From NCBI GenBank assembly GCA_037131105.1, contig JBAXRQ010000001.1, positions 560,589 through 624,588 on the forward strand: a stretch of DNA of 64,000 bases, written 5' to 3'. A program made the position numbers and the translations under genes. Shown here in pieces: positions 3,959 to 46,136 of this stretch (positions within the stretch are counted from its first letter, which is position 1; every line of letters begins with the position of its first letter). The notes below the pieces were generated by a model. It was not told where the DNA came from and ran no database searches. It saw only the letters and a program-made list of their open reading frames with translations. The stretch comes from a bacterium (lineage in GTDB: Bacteria > Patescibacteriota > UBA1384 > CAILIB01).

Positions 3959-6748
3959 ATGAACAACCCCCTCGCCGGACTCACCCCTGACCAAGCCAAA
4001 GCCGTCACCCACAAGGACGGTCCCTGCCTGGTAGTGGCAGGAGCCGGAACGGGCAAGACCAGCGTCATTACCAAGCGCATTGCCAACCTGATATTGAATG
4101 AAAAGGTTGAGCCCGAGCAGATTTTGGCCCTGACCTTCACTGACAAAGCCGCCGGGGAGATGGAGGAACGCCTGGATGTTCTCTTACCCTATGGCATGTT
4201 CGGCACCACCATCGGTACCTTCCACTCCTTCTGCCGGGAGTTGGTCCGCCGCCACGCCTTTACCATAGGCATTGACCCTAACGCCCGCCTGATCGGCAAG
4301 GCCGAAGAGGTGAGCCTGCTTCGGGCCAACCTTCTCCACCTTCCTCTTAAGCGCTACAAGCCGGCCGCCAACCCAGTCAGCTTCCTGCGCCAGCTGGCAG
4401 GGTTCATTGACCGGGCCAAGGAGGAACGAATCACTCCTGAGCTCCTGGCCGAGCATGGCAGTGAGATAATGGCCGCCGCCGAGAATGATGCCGACAAGGA
4501 AGCAGGCGAGCGCATCCTGGAACTTTCTGAGTGCTACGAAGCCGCCAACCGTCTCTACGCCGAGGCGAACATCCTCACCTACGCAGACCTGATTTCCTTC
4601 AGCCTGAGGATTCTTCAGGAGTCAGCCTTGGCCCGCAAGGAAGAGCAGGACCGGTTCCGCTATGTCCTCATCGATGAGTTCCAGGATACCAACACCGCGC
4701 AGGCGGAGATCTGCTACCTGTTGGCAGGGGAAAGGGAGAACATCTTCGTGGTAGGGGACGACGACCAGGCCATCTATAGGTTCCGGGGTGCCAACGTCGA
4801 CAATATCATCATGTTCAGGGCCCGTTACCCGAAGGCCCCCGTCGTGACACTCAGGGATAACTTCCGCTCTACCCAGCCCATACTTGACGCCGCCTACAGC
4901 CTCATCCAGCACAATAACCCGCACCGCCTGGAGGTGATCGAGAAGATCGATAAGCAGCTTATCGCCCACAGCGAGGCCGAGCCTGCCGCCGTCGAGTCGC
5001 TGCACTTCAGCGCCGGCAGCTATGAGCAGGAGGGAGTGGCCCTGCGCATCCAGGCACTGTTGGACATCGGCTACGAGAGCCAGGATATCGCAATACTTGC
5101 CCGGGGACACGCCCAGCTTGACCCCTTTGAGCGTGAGCTCTCTTCCTGGGGCATCCAGACCCTTCGCCACAAGGACGGATCTTTTTATAGCCTACCGACG
5201 GTGGAGCGGGCACTTTCCTACTTACGCTTCCTGGTCTCGCCACACGACTCATTCAATCTCTTCTTCCTTTTGTCCGAGCCGCCCTTTGCCGTGGAGACCG
5301 TACTCCTGCGTGAGCTCAGCGTTTCCGCCCGCAAGATAAACAATTCCCTCTGGGAAGAATTAGGGAGCAGTAGCGTGGAACTGCCCGAGGACGCCGCTGA
5401 GGCTTTCCGCTACCTGGGACAGAAGCTCACGTCAAAAGTACGCACGCCCACTGATGCCCTGCGCGACTTTATCGGCACTTCCGGCTGGGAGAAGCAGCTT
5501 ACCGAAGCTGATGACAGGGATGCCTTCGCTGCCCTGAACACGCTCTACGCCGAGGCAGGCTCTTTTGAGCGCCTGCACAAGCCAGTGGTCCTTTCCCAAT
5601 ACCTTCTGCACGTGGACCAGCTTATAGCTAGCGGTGAGGATATTAAGGTGGAAAGTGAACTAGGGAAGGAGAAGGAAGGCGTCCAGCTGATGACCATACA
5701 CGGGAGCAAGGGACTGGAGTTTAAGGCGGTGTTCGTGGTCAACATGACCTCAGACCGATTCCCAGGCCCGAACCGCAGTGGGGGACTACCGCTACCTGAA
5801 GAGCTGGTTACCCTCCAGGAAGACAAGGTGAAGTACGAGGAGGAACGCCGCCTAGCCTACGTGGCCATGACGCGGGCCAAGGAACGCCTCTTCCTGACCC
5901 ATTCGCAACGCTACGAGGGTAACAAGCGGGAGAAGAAGCTGTCTCCCTTCTTGTCAGAAGCCTTAGGGCCACAGGATGAGAAGAACTACGCCGATCAGCC
6001 GCTTCGACTTGGACTGTCTCAGGCAGACACCAGCGAGAAGGCTCCTCAGTTCAGCATCCCCACTACCTACTCAGCCTCAGCCCTGGAGGCGTTCGAGGAG
6101 TCGCCTGAGCGCTATCTAATCGAGCAGGTGTACCGACTGCCGCAGCCTGACTCGTCCTACTCCAGCTTCGGTACCTGCGTCCATGAAGTACTGCACGCCG
6201 CCTTCGGAGCCATCCGCTCAGGGAAGCCGCTGACCGACGGGCAGATAGTCGAGCAGTATGAGAAATGCTGGCGGGCTGAAGGTTTCGAGCACAAGCTGCA
6301 AGAAGAGGAGTGGCGCCAGGAGGGCCTGGCCGCTATTCAGGGTTATTTGTCCTCACATGACGGCGACTATGTGCCTGACCGTCTGGAGCACCCCATTGAG
6401 CTGGTACTGCCCAGTGGCATCCGGATTATCGGCAAGGTGGACCGGATAGACAAGCTGTCCGACGGAAGCGTCAAGGTAATCGACTACAAGACTGGCAGAA
6501 AGACGGCTACCCATGCCGACATCAAGAAGAACCTGCCACTGGCCGTCTACGCCGCCGCACTCAGCCAACGCCGAGAACAGGTAGGTTCGGTCTCCTTGCA
6601 TTACCTGATGAACGGTGAGACGGTGGACCTACCCGTAGACGAGGCGTTCCTAGCCCAGACCATAGAGCGGGTGTCTGACATTGTCAGCCGCATCGAGGAT
6701 GCTTACAAAACAAATACCTGGCCTTCGGTAAAGACATATTTTAATTAG
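3959..6748 (+). CDS. UvrD/PcrA-like ATP-dependent DNA helicase fused to a C-terminal PD-(D/E)XK (RecB-family) nuclease domain
   Basis: Walker A GAGTGKTSV, UvrD motifs (VLIDEFQDTN, FVVGDDDQAIYRFRGA, MTIHGSKGLEF), and a C-terminal GKVDRID...VIDYKTG nuclease motif. Confidence 0.85.
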   Translation: MNNPLAGLTPDQAKAVTHKDGPCLVVAGAGTGKTSVITKRIANLILNEKVEPEQILALTFTDKAAGEMEERLDVLLPYGMFGTTIGTFHSFCRELVRRHAFTIGIDPNARLIGKAEEVSLLRANLLHLPLKRYKPAANPVSFLRQLAGFIDRAKEERITPELLAEHGSEIMAAAENDADKEAGERILELSECYEAANRLYAEANILTYADLISFSLRILQESALARKEEQDRFRYVLIDEFQDTNTAQAEICYLLAGERENIFVVGDDDQAIYRFRGANVDNIIMFRARYPKAPVVTLRDNFRSTQPILDAAYSLIQHNNPHRLEVIEKIDKQLIAHSEAEPAAVESLHFSAGSYEQEGVALRIQALLDIGYESQDIAILARGHAQLDPFERELSSWGIQTLRHKDGSFYSLPTVERALSYLRFLVSPHDSFNLFFLLSEPPFAVETVLLRELSVSARKINNSLWEELGSSSVELPEDAAEAFRYLGQKLTSKVRTPTDALRDFIGTSGWEKQLTEADDRDAFAALNTLYAEAGSFERLHKPVVLSQYLLHVDQLIASGEDIKVESELGKEKEGVQLMTIHGSKGLEFKAVFVVNMTSDRFPGPNRSGGLPLPEELVTLQEDKVKYEEERRLAYVAMTRAKERLFLTHSQRYEGNKREKKLSPFLSEALGPQDEKNYADQPLRLGLSQADTSEKAPQFSIPTTYSASALEAFEESPERYLIEQVYRLPQPDSSYSSFGTCVHEVLHAAFGAIRSGKPLTDGQIVEQYEKCWRAEGFEHKLQEEEWRQEGLAAIQGYLSSHDGDYVPDRLEHPIELVLPSGIRIIGKVDRIDKLSDGSVKVIDYKTGRKTATHADIKKNLPLAVYAAALSQRREQVGSVSLHYLMNGETVDLPVDEAFLAQTIERVSDIVSRIEDAYKTNTWPSVKTYFN

Positions 6749-34893: not shown

Positions 34894-35970
34894 CTAGTTG
34901 AATGGAACCTGGACAGGGTTGTCGCCAGGACCAGTTACCGGACCGCCCGGATCCCCCGGTATGGGGTAATTCGGTGGCTCGTCAGGTCCAGTGGGTTGTC
35001 CGGGATTGCCCGGTGTAGGTGGCTTACGGTGATGCCCACCCTGGTGCTGGTGCTGATTCTGAGTCTGCGACTGGCGGATGTCAATCCTGCTTGGCAGGCT
35101 GATGTATCCGCTCTGGGAGCCGGCTGTGACCGTGAAGTCATGGCCATGTGCGCGGCCGGGAGTTCCCAGCTGCACGGGTGGCGCCGGTGTCTCGCGTTCG
35201 ATCACCGTGGTGCCACCGCCGACGATGAGGAAGGTTTGACGCTCCTGCACGACGGTCTTCGGCTGATGCCAGCGCTCGACAATCTTCTCCTTGTACTTGA
35301 TCTTGGTCTTATACTTGACCTTGGTCTTGTACTTGGTGACGGTCCTTGTCTTGCACTTGCACTCGCAGGGAGGCGACGGTGTACCTTTGGAAGGCTGGCC
35401 GTTAGACTCGTTGCCGCAGTATCCGTGCCGCGACATATCGTCCCAGACATGCGTATAGTCCCACGACTTATTCCCATCTTTCCAGGTAACGACCATCGTG
35501 TAACGGTCGTAGTCCTTGACGATGTAGGGGTTAGCCGAAGTACCGTAGCCCGAGACCCACTTGCCGCCGCGAACGAAGGAGTAATTGAACTGGTCGCCCT
35601 TGTTAAGAGTGAACCACTTCTCTCCTGGACCGGGTGCGATGCCCCGCTTGGGGCCTGGAAAATCCAGGCACTCCATGCTGGTATCGACTTTGCCCGGAAC
35701 GGACAGCAGGGCGGTGTTGCGCTGACCTTCGGGCACGTTGGCTGCCCAAGCGCCGTACTTGACCGTCCACTTACGCTCGGGCATGCTGTCGACCTCGCGG
35801 ACGACGTCGTTGCTGTACCCGAGGTGGCGGTTGTAGTCTCGCTTCCACTGTGCCTCGGCCATAAGCCTTGGCATTTCGGACATCGGTGGTTGCCGAAGGT
35901 CGTTCGTCTGGGCGATTACCGGCATTGCTGCCAGCAGAAGCCCAAAAGCCATCAATATGATACGTTTCAT
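34894..35970 (-). CDS. Secreted hypothetical protein (signal peptide MKRIILMAFGLLLAAMPVIAQ; Lys-rich KYKTKVKYKTKIKYKEKI repeat; Pro/Gly-rich C-terminus)
   Basis: Start moved to the ATG preceded by AGGAGAAAAAG; 20 nt after the stop of the upstream gene. Confidence 0.55.
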   Translation of the reverse strand: MKRIILMAFGLLLAAMPVIAQTNDLRQPPMSEMPRLMAEAQWKRDYNRHLGYSNDVVREVDSMPERKWTVKYGAWAANVPEGQRNTALLSVPGKVDTSMECLDFPGPKRGIAPGPGEKWFTLNKGDQFNYSFVRGGKWVSGYGTSANPYIVKDYDRYTMVVTWKDGNKSWDYTHVWDDMSRHGYCGNESNGQPSKGTPSPPCECKCKTRTVTKYKTKVKYKTKIKYKEKIVERWHQPKTVVQERQTFLIVGGGTTVIERETPAPPVQLGTPGRAHGHDFTVTAGSQSGYISLPSRIDIRQSQTQNQHQHQGGHHRKPPTPGNPGQPTGPDEPPNYPIPGDPGGPVTGPGDNPVQVPFN

Positions 35971-35992
35971 CTTTTTCTCCTCATTCCTCTTC

Positions 35993-37042
35993 CTACTGCT
36001 TGCCCAGGAAAGAATCCTGGTTGAAGGCAATGACACCTTCGCCGTACTTCAGATCCCGAAGGGTGAAGAACAGCTCGGTTGTCACCTTCTTTCCGGTGCC
36101 CACTTCCGTAAGAACTTGCCGCTCCACCTGAAAGGTGGTTCCGGCCGGTCCGACGAAGCGGTCATGAAAGTCGACTTTTCGGCCGTCAGAATACTTGTAG
36201 TATCCGACAACTTCATAATCAACTTCGCTCAATGCCCGGAAATCGATGGTGCCGTTAACACCCGTAAGCGGGTATCCTCCACTGAACCGGTTAGCCGGTG
36301 GCGTGGTGGTTACATGCTCGACGGGCTTTTGCGGTGCCAGGGGAGCCACATATACAGGGGCGGCTGCGATTGACGGTGCCGGCGGTCCGGCAATTCCGTT
36401 CAACCGATAGTACTCCTGCCACATCCACGCGATGATGTCGTCCGCGGTGCCATCGGCAACCGGACAGTCCTCACCGATGAATGTGATCGTGGTATCGCTC
36501 CAACCCGGCGGGTGCTTTGCACTGCCACCGAATAAGCCTGCGACGGCATTGCCGGCGACCTGGCCCAGACTTCCTTCCGAAGTTATCCGCAACACCCGGC
36601 TGCTTCCGCAAGCTGGAGTAACGGTTATCTTCTCCTTAAGGTAGTCGGGCTTGTTTTTGTCCTGCCAACTGGGCTGCGCACCGTCCCATCCACGACGAAC
36701 GTGAGCTGTAGTGCGATCCCTATGCTGCATGTCAGGGGCATAGCCGAAAGGCGTGCCTATGACTTCATCGGAAAAGCTCATACCTTTCGGCAGGTTGGTC
36801 GGCACGACCAGGAACGTATTTTCGTTCATCGGTGCGTGCACTATCGACAGCTTGGTACCGACCATTCGAAAAAGGTCAGTGTTCACGCCGGCGGCAGTTT
36901 GGACGGAAGACGAGGTCGGCTTGGTGCCGCTGATGCCAAATCCACCCAATGCCCCAGGCACTCCAGCGTGAGCCGGGAGAGCGTGGGACGACATAACAAG
37001 TAACAGTACAGCCGCAATGGCTGTCTTAAATACGCATTTCAT
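35993..37042 (-). CDS. Secreted hypothetical protein (signal peptide, AHA cleavage site)
   Basis: SD AAGGAGA 8 nt upstream; N-terminal MKCVFKTAIAAVLLLVMSSHALPAHA; first gene of a 2-gene operon. Confidence 0.55.
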   Translation of the reverse strand: MKCVFKTAIAAVLLLVMSSHALPAHAGVPGALGGFGISGTKPTSSSVQTAAGVNTDLFRMVGTKLSIVHAPMNENTFLVVPTNLPKGMSFSDEVIGTPFGYAPDMQHRDRTTAHVRRGWDGAQPSWQDKNKPDYLKEKITVTPACGSSRVLRITSEGSLGQVAGNAVAGLFGGSAKHPPGWSDTTITFIGEDCPVADGTADDIIAWMWQEYYRLNGIAGPPAPSIAAAPVYVAPLAPQKPVEHVTTTPPANRFSGGYPLTGVNGTIDFRALSEVDYEVVGYYKYSDGRKVDFHDRFVGPAGTTFQVERQVLTEVGTGKKVTTELFFTLRDLKYGEGVIAFNQDSFLGKQ

Positions 37043-37156
37043 TCTAATTCTCCTTGGAATCTCATATTGTCAAAGGCGCCCCACCACAGGCATTCCTCTT
37101 AAAACTGTGGGACCTGACTACCGCTGTGCGGCACTGGCATTCGCCAGGAATGTCTC

Positions 37157-37185
37157 TTTATAGCCTAATTCTCTTATTTTGTCAA
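37157..37185 (-). promoter_or_regulatory. Sigma70 promoter TTGACA-17-TATAAA for the secreted-protein operon (37042-34894)
   Basis: Consensus hexamers with 17 nt spacing on the minus strand, ~110 nt upstream of the ATG. Confidence 0.6.
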
Positions 37186-37220
37186 TACCATAGCCTAATA
37201 TTTGTGGGTTACTTCACAGC

Positions 37221-37446
37221 AAAAAACCGGCCTTTCGGTCGGTTTTCCCTCACTCTCTTTTGTTGGGCTGATCTAGCCAGGAAAAGGGCGCGCGCGCAGA
37301 GACAGTCGGTTTATGTGGCATGTAGCCTAAGATCCCGTCTGTGTTGAGTTCTGCGAAGCAATCATCCGCAATTCCCAGCCAGGTCAGCCAAGCAAAATGT
37401 AAAAGTAAAAACAGCCCTTCTACCGTGGTCTAGCGTTGTCCTGTTC
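37221..37446 (-). ncRNA. Candidate ~225-nt small RNA (or structured 3' region of the epimerase transcript), delimited by a consensus promoter and a strong intrinsic terminator; no ORF longer than 16 codons
   Basis: TTGACA-17-TATAGT promoter at 37453-37481 (minus). Terminator aaaaccgacc-gaaa-ggccggtttttt at 37221-37250 (minus). Only 12- and 16-codon ORFs between them. Confidence 0.35.
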
Positions 37447-37452
37447 TGAAGC

Positions 37453-37481
37453 ACTATACAACACGATTATTGGCTTGTCAA
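37453..37481 (-). promoter_or_regulatory. Sigma70 promoter TTGACA-17-TATAGT inside the 3' region downstream of the epimerase gene
   Basis: Perfect -35, near-perfect -10, 17 nt spacing. Confidence 0.55.
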
Positions 37482-37525
37482 GCCCCTTTCATACTTCTGC
37501 ATATATCTGCCCCCGACATCCATGT

Positions 37526-38467
37526 TCAGGACCGATACTGTCGATACCATTCAACAGTCTGTCGTACTCCCTCGGTAAAGTCGACCTGAGGGCTCCAATC
37601 CAGGTTAGAAGCCGCTTTCTCCACTGAAAGGCTCACTGCCATCAACTCACCAGGTCGAAGCGGCTCATATCGTGCCTCTAGGACATACCCTGTTGCCCCG
37701 CTAAGGGTGCGAAATACCTCGTTGGTAGAAGTGCCACGGCCGGTTCCAATATTAAAGGCCTCCCCGTCTCCCTCTCTCAGGGCAGCCGTATTAGCAGCTG
37801 CTACGTCACTGACGAATATATAGTCCCTGAGGGGAGTACCGTCACCAAACACTGTAACCGGCTGACTGTGCAGCATGCGCTCGGTAAAAATAGCGCAAAC
37901 GCCTACCTCACCATGCGGGTCTTGACGAGGACCATAGACATTGCCATATCGCAAAACAGTAGCCCTAAGCCCATATATGTCAGCATACAACCAAACATAA
38001 CGCTCTGCTGTGTATTTAGAAAGACCGTAAGGTGAAGTAGGTGAGGCCGGAGTGTCCTCAAGGGTGGGAAGAGTCTCGGCGACGCCGTACATAGTGCCAC
38101 CGCTCGCCGAATAGATGACCTTGGACTGAGGCGACTCAGTACGAACTGCTTCCAGGATATTTACCGTACCCAGCACATTCAGTGTCAGGTCATCGAGAGG
38201 TCGCATGGAGGATATAGCTACTGAGACTTGGGCGGCATGATGGCTGACCACATCGGGCCGAACCTGAGTCATCACCGACTTGAGAAAGTCTAGGTCACGT
38301 ATGTCTCCTTCTCGAACTGTCAGGCCGACTCGTCCCTCGTTTCCCAGGTTCTCCCGCTTTCCGGTAGAAAAGTCATCGATTACCGTCACCTCATGACCAG
38401 CTTTCAGATAAGCATCCACCACATGTGAACCAATAAATCCAGCTCCTCCAGTAACTACGATCTTCAT
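37526..38467 (-). CDS. NAD-dependent epimerase/dehydratase (UDP-sugar 4-epimerase/decarboxylase family); start set at MKIVVTGGAGFIGSH
   Basis: Rossmann GGAGFIGS and YSASKY-type catalytic motif (YGLSKY). Confidence 0.8.
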   Translation of the reverse strand: MKIVVTGGAGFIGSHVVDAYLKAGHEVTVIDDFSTGKRENLGNEGRVGLTVREGDIRDLDFLKSVMTQVRPDVVSHHAAQVSVAISSMRPLDDLTLNVLGTVNILEAVRTESPQSKVIYSASGGTMYGVAETLPTLEDTPASPTSPYGLSKYTAERYVWLYADIYGLRATVLRYGNVYGPRQDPHGEVGVCAIFTERMLHSQPVTVFGDGTPLRDYIFVSDVAAANTAALREGDGEAFNIGTGRGTSTNEVFRTLSGATGYVLEARYEPLRPGELMAVSLSVEKAASNLDWSPQVDFTEGVRQTVEWYRQYRS

Positions 38468-45806: not shown

Positions 45807-45835
45807 TTGACAAGAAAAGTTGGCTATGGTAGTAT
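45807..45835 (+). promoter_or_regulatory. Sigma70 promoter TTGACA-17-TAGTAT on the plus strand, in an otherwise minus-strand region
   Basis: Consensus -35, good -10, AT-rich upstream region. Confidence 0.55.
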
Positions 45836-45841
45836 CAGATC

Positions 45842-45985
45842 ATATTTGAGCGACCAGGTTGTCTATCTATCTACGCAGCCAACGATCTTTGCCCCTCCTT
45901 TGGATCGGGCCCGCAAGGGCCGGCACGTAGATAGATACATCACCTGGTCCAAGCACAAAAACACCGCCTTCAAGCGGTGTTTTTA
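45842..45985 (+). ncRNA. Candidate ~145-nt small RNA: outer 8+13-bp stem enclosing a hairpin with a 15-nt C-rich loop (UUUGCCCCUCCUUUG) and a GCAA-tetraloop hairpin, ending in an intrinsic terminator
   Basis: Transcript bounded by the promoter at 45807-45835 and the terminator at 45957-45985; 64-codon ORF has no SD and unusual composition. Confidence 0.4.
45957..45985. terminator. Bidirectional intrinsic terminator (aaaaa-acaccgcc-ttcaa-ggcggtgt-ttttt) serving the small RNA candidate (plus) and the rplK transcript (minus)
   Basis: 8-bp GC stem flanked by A5 and T5. Confidence 0.7.
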
Positions 45986-46136
45986 GTTGCAAGCGGTAAA
46001 CGTGTCCGGTACAGATCCCGTAAACGTTTTCAGGGAGATGAATTTTGAGGAAGAAGTGAGTATTCGACCGAGGCGTACTGACGTACGTCGAGGAAGAAAC
46101 GGAGCTTCTGACAAAGAAATTCGCTCGCTGAAACGT

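Follow-up and report, generated by a model that had tools for sequence, protein, structure and literature searches.

A structured RNA family absent from Rfam, conserved in one clade of Patescibacteria

In Patescibacteria, whose genomes measure about 1 Mb, non-coding DNA is very scarce. What, then, is held by a 483-bp non-coding gap found in a metagenome-assembled genome of this group (CPR)? The gap (37043-37525) lies in a window of 64,000 nucleotides, the whole stretch of DNA analysed here, and runs from the stop codon of an epimerase gene to the ATG of a gene for a secreted protein of 349 residues. Both flanking genes are on the minus strand, the epimerase upstream of the gap and the 349-aa protein downstream. 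A first-pass annotation had placed in it a minus-strand TTGACA-17-TATAGT promoter and a terminator, and had read the two as the bounds of a small RNA. Both signals hold, with their coordinates confirmed, and so does the reading itself: promoter, covarying body and terminator are found in 11/11 genomes.

Promoter, terminator and their conservation

The -35 box of the RNA gene, TTGACA (37476-37481, minus strand), is followed after a 17-nt spacer by the -10 box TATAGT and then GC (37453-37458, minus strand). Together they match 11 of the 12 consensus positions and constitute the sole promoter-like site across 35.5-39.5 kb. Transcription is predicted to start at 37445-37447 (minus strand), 6-8 nt past the -10 box, a position that rests on promoter geometry only and was not measured. 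The intrinsic terminator AAAACCGACC-GAAA-GGCCGGUUUUUU (37221-37249, minus strand), identified by sequence and fold, lies 226 nt downstream of the promoter. The predicted 226-nt transcript has a minimum free energy of -77.8 kcal/mol (z = -3.8), and none of 200 dinucleotide shuffles is as good. Its ends and its abundance are predictions made from sequence alone, without experimental data.

Across the window, perfect TTGACA-N16-18-TANNNT sites exceed expectation, with 6 found for 0.93 expected. In a local scan, neither promoter-like hits (1 against 2.6 expected) nor terminator-like hits (4 against 3.6 expected) rise above chance singly; the case for an RNA gene therefore rests on cross-genome comparison. 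The first-pass annotation had counted only 12- and 16-codon reading frames between the two signals, which holds in part. The list of open reading frames in the region also contains a 30-codon GTG frame on the minus strand (37362-37454), starting within the -10 box, as well as frames of 97 and 30 codons on the plus strand; none of these three is conserved. ARAGORN detects no tRNA or tmRNA gene in the 64-kb window, and a second copy of the RNA is absent from it, both in a search of the window against itself and with the covariance model described below.

The nearest relatives of the source genome share 55-64% CysS identity with it. In this clade IleRS identity is at least 54% and the largest contigs measure 0.91-0.95 Mb; its gene content combines housekeeping genes with a type IV secretion-like ATPase and numerous large hypothetical proteins. 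Exact copies of the epimerase and of the 349-aa protein are encoded on two further contigs, one from an ENA metagenome and one, from a lake, at JGI; in the lake contig the gap sequence is identical as well. The comparison set, anchored on CysS, comprises 11 genomes: the window and ten fetched relatives (loci L164-L176).

The same RNA is present in the same syntenic place in all ten fetched relatives, within the common gene order mfd-dprA-topA-recR-small acidic protein-cysS-RNA-two secreted proteins-CLIPPER/DUF11 proteins. At the homologous site, TTGACA is perfect in 11/11 genomes and stands 17-18 nt from a -10 box that reads TATAGT, TATAAT, TAAGGT, TATACT or CATAAT. Each copy consists of a 5' hairpin of unrelated sequence, a conserved rod of ~165 nt and a terminator, for a predicted transcript length of ~190-230 nt. 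In every homologue termination is assigned either to a separate terminator hairpin or to the GC-rich base of the rod, directly followed by a U-run; in six genomes the rod base and its U-run are themselves the terminator. Identity averages 78% in the rod core (minimum 69%), against 59% in cysS DNA.

A covariance model, R1, was built from the family alignment, with L176 left out of training. On the window it scores 153.7 bits on the minus strand (E 1e-34) and 24.9 bits on the plus strand. The untrained L176 homologue, from a genome with 55% CysS identity, scores 156.4 bits, and no hit occurs in ~90 unrelated loci (~590 kb). A blastn search of a plasmid collection gives no match to the RNA, and a pattern scan of viral contigs gives 0 hits.

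The conservation of promoter, body and terminator, all three in 11 genomes, is the decisive evidence. We have little doubt that the gap contains an independently promoted and terminated gene for a conserved and structured non-coding RNA. It is taken as an independent unit because it has its own promoter and terminator, and because separate TTGACA boxes precede the downstream operon in at least 4 genomes. The RNA is the founding member of a family without an entry in Rfam 15, conserved within one Patescibacteria (CPR) clade.

An unbranched rod with invariant loops

The consensus fold of the ten-sequence alignment (A1) contains 51 pairs, 22 of them with compensatory changes, and 93.9% of its cells are paired; 0/500 shuffles reach these values. 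The covariation score is 0.369 against 0.176 for the shuffles, again with 0/500 reaching it, and slid-partner controls give at most 0.136, with 42-48% of cells paired. The rod, unbranched and ~165 nt long, is supported by this covariation. Its full R1 match spans 37241-37414, with the helices proper at 37251-37408, as defined by the alignment, the consensus fold and the pair statistics; all features of the RNA described here lie on the minus strand. In the window, the transcript folds into a 5' hairpin, the long rod and the terminator. The 5' hairpin (37409-37446) is variable in sequence and present in the MFE folds of every homologue.

The basal arm (helix 1) is made of P1 and P2, whose 5' strands (37384-37408) vary in sequence with covarying pairs; changes on both sides occur in 16 of its 25 pairs. 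The P2 and P1 3' strands (37251-37272) are placed by the consensus fold and the pair statistics, as is the 3' strand of P3, UUCCUGGCUAG (37273-37283). It pairs with the nearly invariant P3 5' strand, CCUGGCUGGGAA (37372-37383). The P3 consensus, CUGGCUGGG/CCUGGCURG, is invariant and wobble-rich, with three conserved G-U wobbles (GU 9/10, UG 10/10, GU 9/10). These wobbles are strand-specific, because on the opposite strand they would be C-A mismatches. Two sequence elements singled out by the first-pass annotation can now be placed: the CCAGCCAGGTCAGCC quasi-palindrome is present and is the complement of the P2/P3 5' strand, and the GCGCGCGCGC tract, also present, is the 3' strand of the bulged helix above P3.

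This central helix joins the 5' strand UUGCGGAUGAUUGCUUCGCAG (37351-37371), in which GGAUGA is invariant, to the GC tract on the 3' side, CUGCGCGCGCGCCC (37286-37299), which reads CUGUGAUCGCGCCC in relatives. Its consensus is GYGGAUGAUYGUUUCGCAG opposite CUGYG..CGCGCC, with four bulges on the 5' strand and with GGAUGA and CGCC invariant. Pairs 73:145, 75:143, 77:142 and 79:140 covary; the invariant part gives no covariation signal either way, and its mean predicted pairing probability is 0-0.9. Likewise, the central 15/10-nt segment is predicted to be partly paired (probability 0-0.9), its flanking pairs covarying and its core pairs invariant and uninformative. Next comes an asymmetric internal loop, AACUCAACA (37342-37350), with 8-9 nt opposite 3 nt and an invariant CUCAAC. 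Its consensus is UACUCAAC opposite UYU, and its predicted pairing probability is near 0.

The apical domain (37303-37341), taken from the consensus fold, comprises P5 (CAGACGG/CCGACUG), an internal loop of ~7/7 nt and P6 with its loop, GGC-UACAU-GCC. P5 has the consensus CAAGCGG/CCGUUUG and covaries (94:131 is AU in 7 sequences and GC in 3). P6 is conserved in sequence, and its apical loop is UACAU, UCCAU or UAUAU among homologues. Comparisons with the K-turn, loop E, the tetraloop receptor, the hairpin ribozyme and 5S RNA were made by eye only, and none fitted.

The L173 homologue contains an extra hairpin, GAAUAGC-UUG-CUAUUC (5517-5538), between P3 and the GGAUGA segment, giving a three-way junction. 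Its insertion, at the 2x2 loop beside P3, fits a site that tolerates a junction.

Neighbouring genes and insertions

The first-pass annotation had also considered that the RNA might be processed from the 3'UTR of the epimerase transcript. This part failed and is ruled out, because the epimerase is a lineage-specific insertion: it is absent from the cysS-RNA interval in 10/10 relatives, where the RNA follows cysS or another insert. The gene for this NAD-dependent epimerase (37526-38467, minus strand) has its real start, MKIVVTGG, at 38467. Scans of genomes and metagenome contigs place its best homologues, 46-47% identical, in Dormibacteria, Chloroflexia and Actinobacteria, and it was probably acquired horizontally. 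With best matches at this level and in unrelated phyla, it failed as an anchor for finding relatives.

In L165, a different gene, of 280 aa, is inserted at the epimerase's spot. In L172, a fragment of an IS200/IS605-type Y1 transposase lies just downstream of the RNA (5066-5332). The two upstream insertions and this fragment suggest that the flanks of the RNA are an insertion hotspot. In this clade, rplK (L11; 3102-3536 in L176) and rplA (L1; 19630-20442 in L176) are split by a block of ~16 kb, mfd...pth, that holds the RNA; the two genes are adjacent in most bacteria. The acidic 88-aa protein encoded upstream of cysS belongs to no family that we could find.

The upstream stop codon is separated from the -35 box by at most 40 nt in most relatives, so that the RNA terminator probably serves the cysS operon too; in the window, the cysS-epimerase operon likely stops there as well. 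Transcription of the upstream operon is likely to run on into the RNA gene, since the space ahead of the -35 box is usually too short for a terminator. In L167, the TGA stop of cysS lies inside the TTGACA -35 box (5386-5391). On sequence evidence only, we infer that the RNA is probably mainly a primary transcript, made from its own promoter with the perfectly conserved -35 box.

The 349-aa protein has a signal peptide and no Pfam domain. Two signal-peptide proteins are encoded downstream of the RNA (34894-37042, minus strand), a position kept in their L164-L176 counterparts. They contain no Pfam domain, cannot be aligned by BLASTP between genomes and match only themselves among 5.8 billion proteins. 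They may be fast-evolving surface proteins that adjoin a nearly invariant RNA.

A promoter-like site of this downstream operon is found outside the RNA (37157-37199, minus strand), with TTGACA at 37185-37180, a 17-nt spacer and TATAAA at 37162-37157. Comparable TTGACA boxes occur downstream of the RNA in L165, L167 and L171. These new boxes argue, with good probability, for the RNA and the operon as separate units. At the window's site, two direct repeats of ATTAGGCTAT (37199-37190 and 37169-37160), at a spacing of 30 bp, bracket the two promoter boxes. In L171, AATAGGCTAGGGTATTGC is found at the homologous place (~5685-5705). Elsewhere in the window, UUAGGCUA is also present in the apical region of the RNA (37322-37331), and GGCTATGGTA recurs within the spacer of a promoter at 45807. 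The repeat motif at the downstream promoter could be an operator motif or a product of chance. The TTAGGCTA motif, which the RNA tip has in common with the downstream promoter, occurs only in the window and L171, and was thus rejected as a family feature.

Known RNA classes and possible functions

At gathering score, none of the 4,227 families of Rfam 15 matches the 64-kb window or the ten homologous loci (111 kb). At E <= 10 (window, L171 and L165), only inconsistent noise is returned, never 6S or SRP RNA. The hits to P9, SraG, STnc370 and mir-4510 were rejected as terminator-like or miRNA-like noise.

Of the known RNA classes, 6S RNA, taken up below, comes nearest in size, rod shape and arm proportions. 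With small SRP RNA (4.5S; RF00169) the RNA shares one long hairpin in which conserved internal loops, asymmetric and near-symmetric, lie close to the tip, a housekeeping-type gene and a high sequence conservation. It differs by the lack of a model match (RF00169/RF01854) and of the SRP domain IV motifs, by its greater length (a 165-nt rod) and by its tip, GGC-UACAU-GCC instead of a GNRA tetraloop. Orphan structured RNAs such as the raiA motif and OLE are likewise lineage-restricted and strongly covarying, with invariant loops; their function was initially unknown, and they are often associated with proteins. In contrast to them, the present RNA forms a rod without branches and comes from a reduced CPR genome, and it has no sequence or model similarity to them in Rfam 15. 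RNAs of the MicL and DapZ types are small RNAs embedded in 3'UTRs, with internal promoters and Hfq-dependent seed pairing, that overlap a coding sequence or its 3' end. The present gene resembles them in following immediately on the upstream coding sequence, with no terminator between the two and a terminator common to both. It differs in its large conserved structure and in its varying upstream gene (cysS, the epimerase or the 280-aa gene).

That wobbles, bulges and loops stay invariant between helices that covary suggests that a macromolecule, in the simplest case a protein, recognises the RNA. In the explanation that we prefer, the RNA would act in trans, as an abundant protein-binding decoy or a ribonucleoprotein scaffold, and its recognition surface would consist of the invariant wobble helix, the bulges and the CUCAAC loop. 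That it is a trans-acting protein-binding RNA, 6S-like function included, seems to us almost as likely to be right as wrong; it is inferred from the conservation pattern only, without binding data. The most concrete model would be a decoy that binds the sigma-70-type RNA polymerase holoenzyme in the manner of 6S RNA. The closing arm measures ~37 nt per strand, the central irregular segment 15/10 nt and the apical arm 60 nt. The P3 duplex amounts to -14.6 kcal/mol, against -20.5 kcal/mol for a perfectly complementary product-RNA hybrid, and the wobble-weakened P3 could be displaced by such a product RNA. A conserved alternative hairpin for refolding induced by the product RNA was looked for and not found.

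It is possible, if rather unlikely, that the RNA is in fact a true, highly divergent 6S RNA (ssrS; RF00013), an open-promoter mimic that would sequester the sigma-70 holoenzyme and be released through product-RNA synthesis, the binding being inferred. 6S RNA is defined as rod-shaped and ~200 nt long (PMC8876501). The present RNA is likewise a single-copy, unbranched rod of ~200 nt with paired 5' and 3' regions, irregular bulged helices and its own strong, conserved promoter, and the proportions of its closing arm, central segment and apical arm resemble those of 6S RNA in the same paper. Its conserved wobbles also leave P3 weaker than a product-RNA hybrid. Moreover, 6S RNA is described as present in nearly all bacteria (PMC8414754), yet neither the 64-kb window nor the related loci (111 kb) show another candidate; this search for canonical 6S covered, however, only a small fraction of each genome. 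Against this reading, neither RF00013 nor another Rfam family matches at E <= 10 in three homologues, and the RNA carries an extra 5' hairpin. No large open central bubble is predicted: the longest unpaired stretch is 8-9 nt opposite 3 nt, and the centre contains G-C pairs with covarying flanks. The conservation of its primary sequence is also far above what is usual for 6S RNA. Since the family model finds no match and no large central bubble is predicted, we do not file the RNA as a member of 6S; it is treated here as a new family with a possibly 6S-like mode of action, polymerase binding and product RNA being assumed by analogy only.

The other explanations fare less well. A cis-acting leader, riboswitch-like or a protein-dependent attenuator, would control the downstream operon of secreted and CLIPPER-domain surface proteins through regulated read-through of the rod or terminator. 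In its favour, the RNA lies on the same strand, directly upstream of the same operon, wherever the downstream side is visible (at ~95-280 nt, excluding a doubtful gene call at 26 nt in L173). Both gene insertions, the epimerase and the 280-aa gene of L165, are upstream of the RNA and none separates it from the operon; the rod base and U-run form the terminator in six genomes, and invariant loops between covarying helices are typical of aptamers. As the RNA invariably adjoins the same operon, with both gene insertions upstream, a cis role cannot be dismissed. We nevertheless hold it unlikely: a full terminator and then a new TTGACA promoter-like box precede the operon in the window, L165, L167 and L171, the start codon is far away, across sequence that is not conserved, the RNA is nearly invariant next to proteins that evolve too fast to align, and neither a ligand nor an alternative pairing of an expression platform was identified. 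A trans-acting RNA that pairs with its targets through a seed, the invariant single-stranded CUCAAC(C) loop, is doubtful to a similar degree. The stand-alone small-RNA gene architecture and the invariant unpaired loop of 8-9 nt would suit it, but such an RNA has no need for the conservation of both strands of a long helix, with their wobbles and bulges, and conservation at 55-64% CysS identity is unusually deep for this class. The invariant loops, bulges and wobbles between covarying helices probably speak against simple seed pairing. It is very improbable that the RNA is merely an elaborate terminator or processed 3' end of the cysS(-epimerase) operon, devoid of its own function. The upstream stop indeed precedes the -35 box by no more than -4 to 44 nt in 9/11 genomes; nonetheless the perfect -35 box and the 17-18-nt spacing are kept in 11/11, a 165-nt body with invariant loops far exceeds the needs of termination, the RNA persists behind a different upstream gene in the window and L165, and L165 and L172 have a separate terminator-like hairpin upstream. 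Finally, a small protein gene or an element acting as DNA (repeat, mobile hairpin or recombination site) is practically excluded. In several homologues one frame runs for 47-58 codons without a stop, and the region is an inverted repeat; however, the same conserved nucleotides change frame from one genome to another through loop indels of 1-2 nt, and the coding reading was rejected on this inconsistency. Compensatory substitutions, strand-specific G-U wobbles, and the lack of a second copy in the window or of a match in viral contigs or plasmids speak equally against a DNA element.

Returning to the preferred trans-acting, protein-binding RNA, a bolder version would make it an undescribed, clade-specific housekeeping ribonucleoprotein RNA that is not 6S, SRP, RNase P or tmRNA, and whose protein partner, as yet unidentified, would be recruited through the invariant wobble helix and loops. 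For us the balance tips slightly against it. If it were true, these ~1-Mb genomes would keep, with a second RNA at ~45.8 kb, their own small set of essential non-coding RNAs. The RNA is likely important in any case, being more conserved than an aminoacyl-tRNA synthetase gene, preceded everywhere by a promoter with a perfect -35 box, and absent from Rfam. As a 6S equivalent it would show how far the 6S fold can drift; otherwise it would reveal a new RNA-protein system in a major uncultivated lineage. A transcriptome paper on the cultivated strain TM7x states that validated small RNAs are lacking (10.1101/2022.03.25.485537), and our literature search found no papers tying CPR, Patescibacteria or Saccharibacteria to 6S RNA or to the present RNA. 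The alignment and the model can be used now for genome annotation, for mapping of metatranscriptome reads and for the design of pull-downs.

The second small RNA candidate (45807-45990, plus strand), which is probably the one listed first in the first-pass annotation, is also conserved and absent from Rfam. Its promoter is TTGACA-17-TAGTAT (45807-45835) and its terminator lies at ~45955-45985. It folds into a long near-perfect hairpin with two apical hairpins, one of them closed by a GCAA tetraloop, at a minimum free energy of -70.2 kcal/mol. Homologues are found by blastn between rplK and mfd in L166 (88%), L165 (85%) and L176 (76% over 140 nt), and another in L164 (95%) is cut by the end of the locus.
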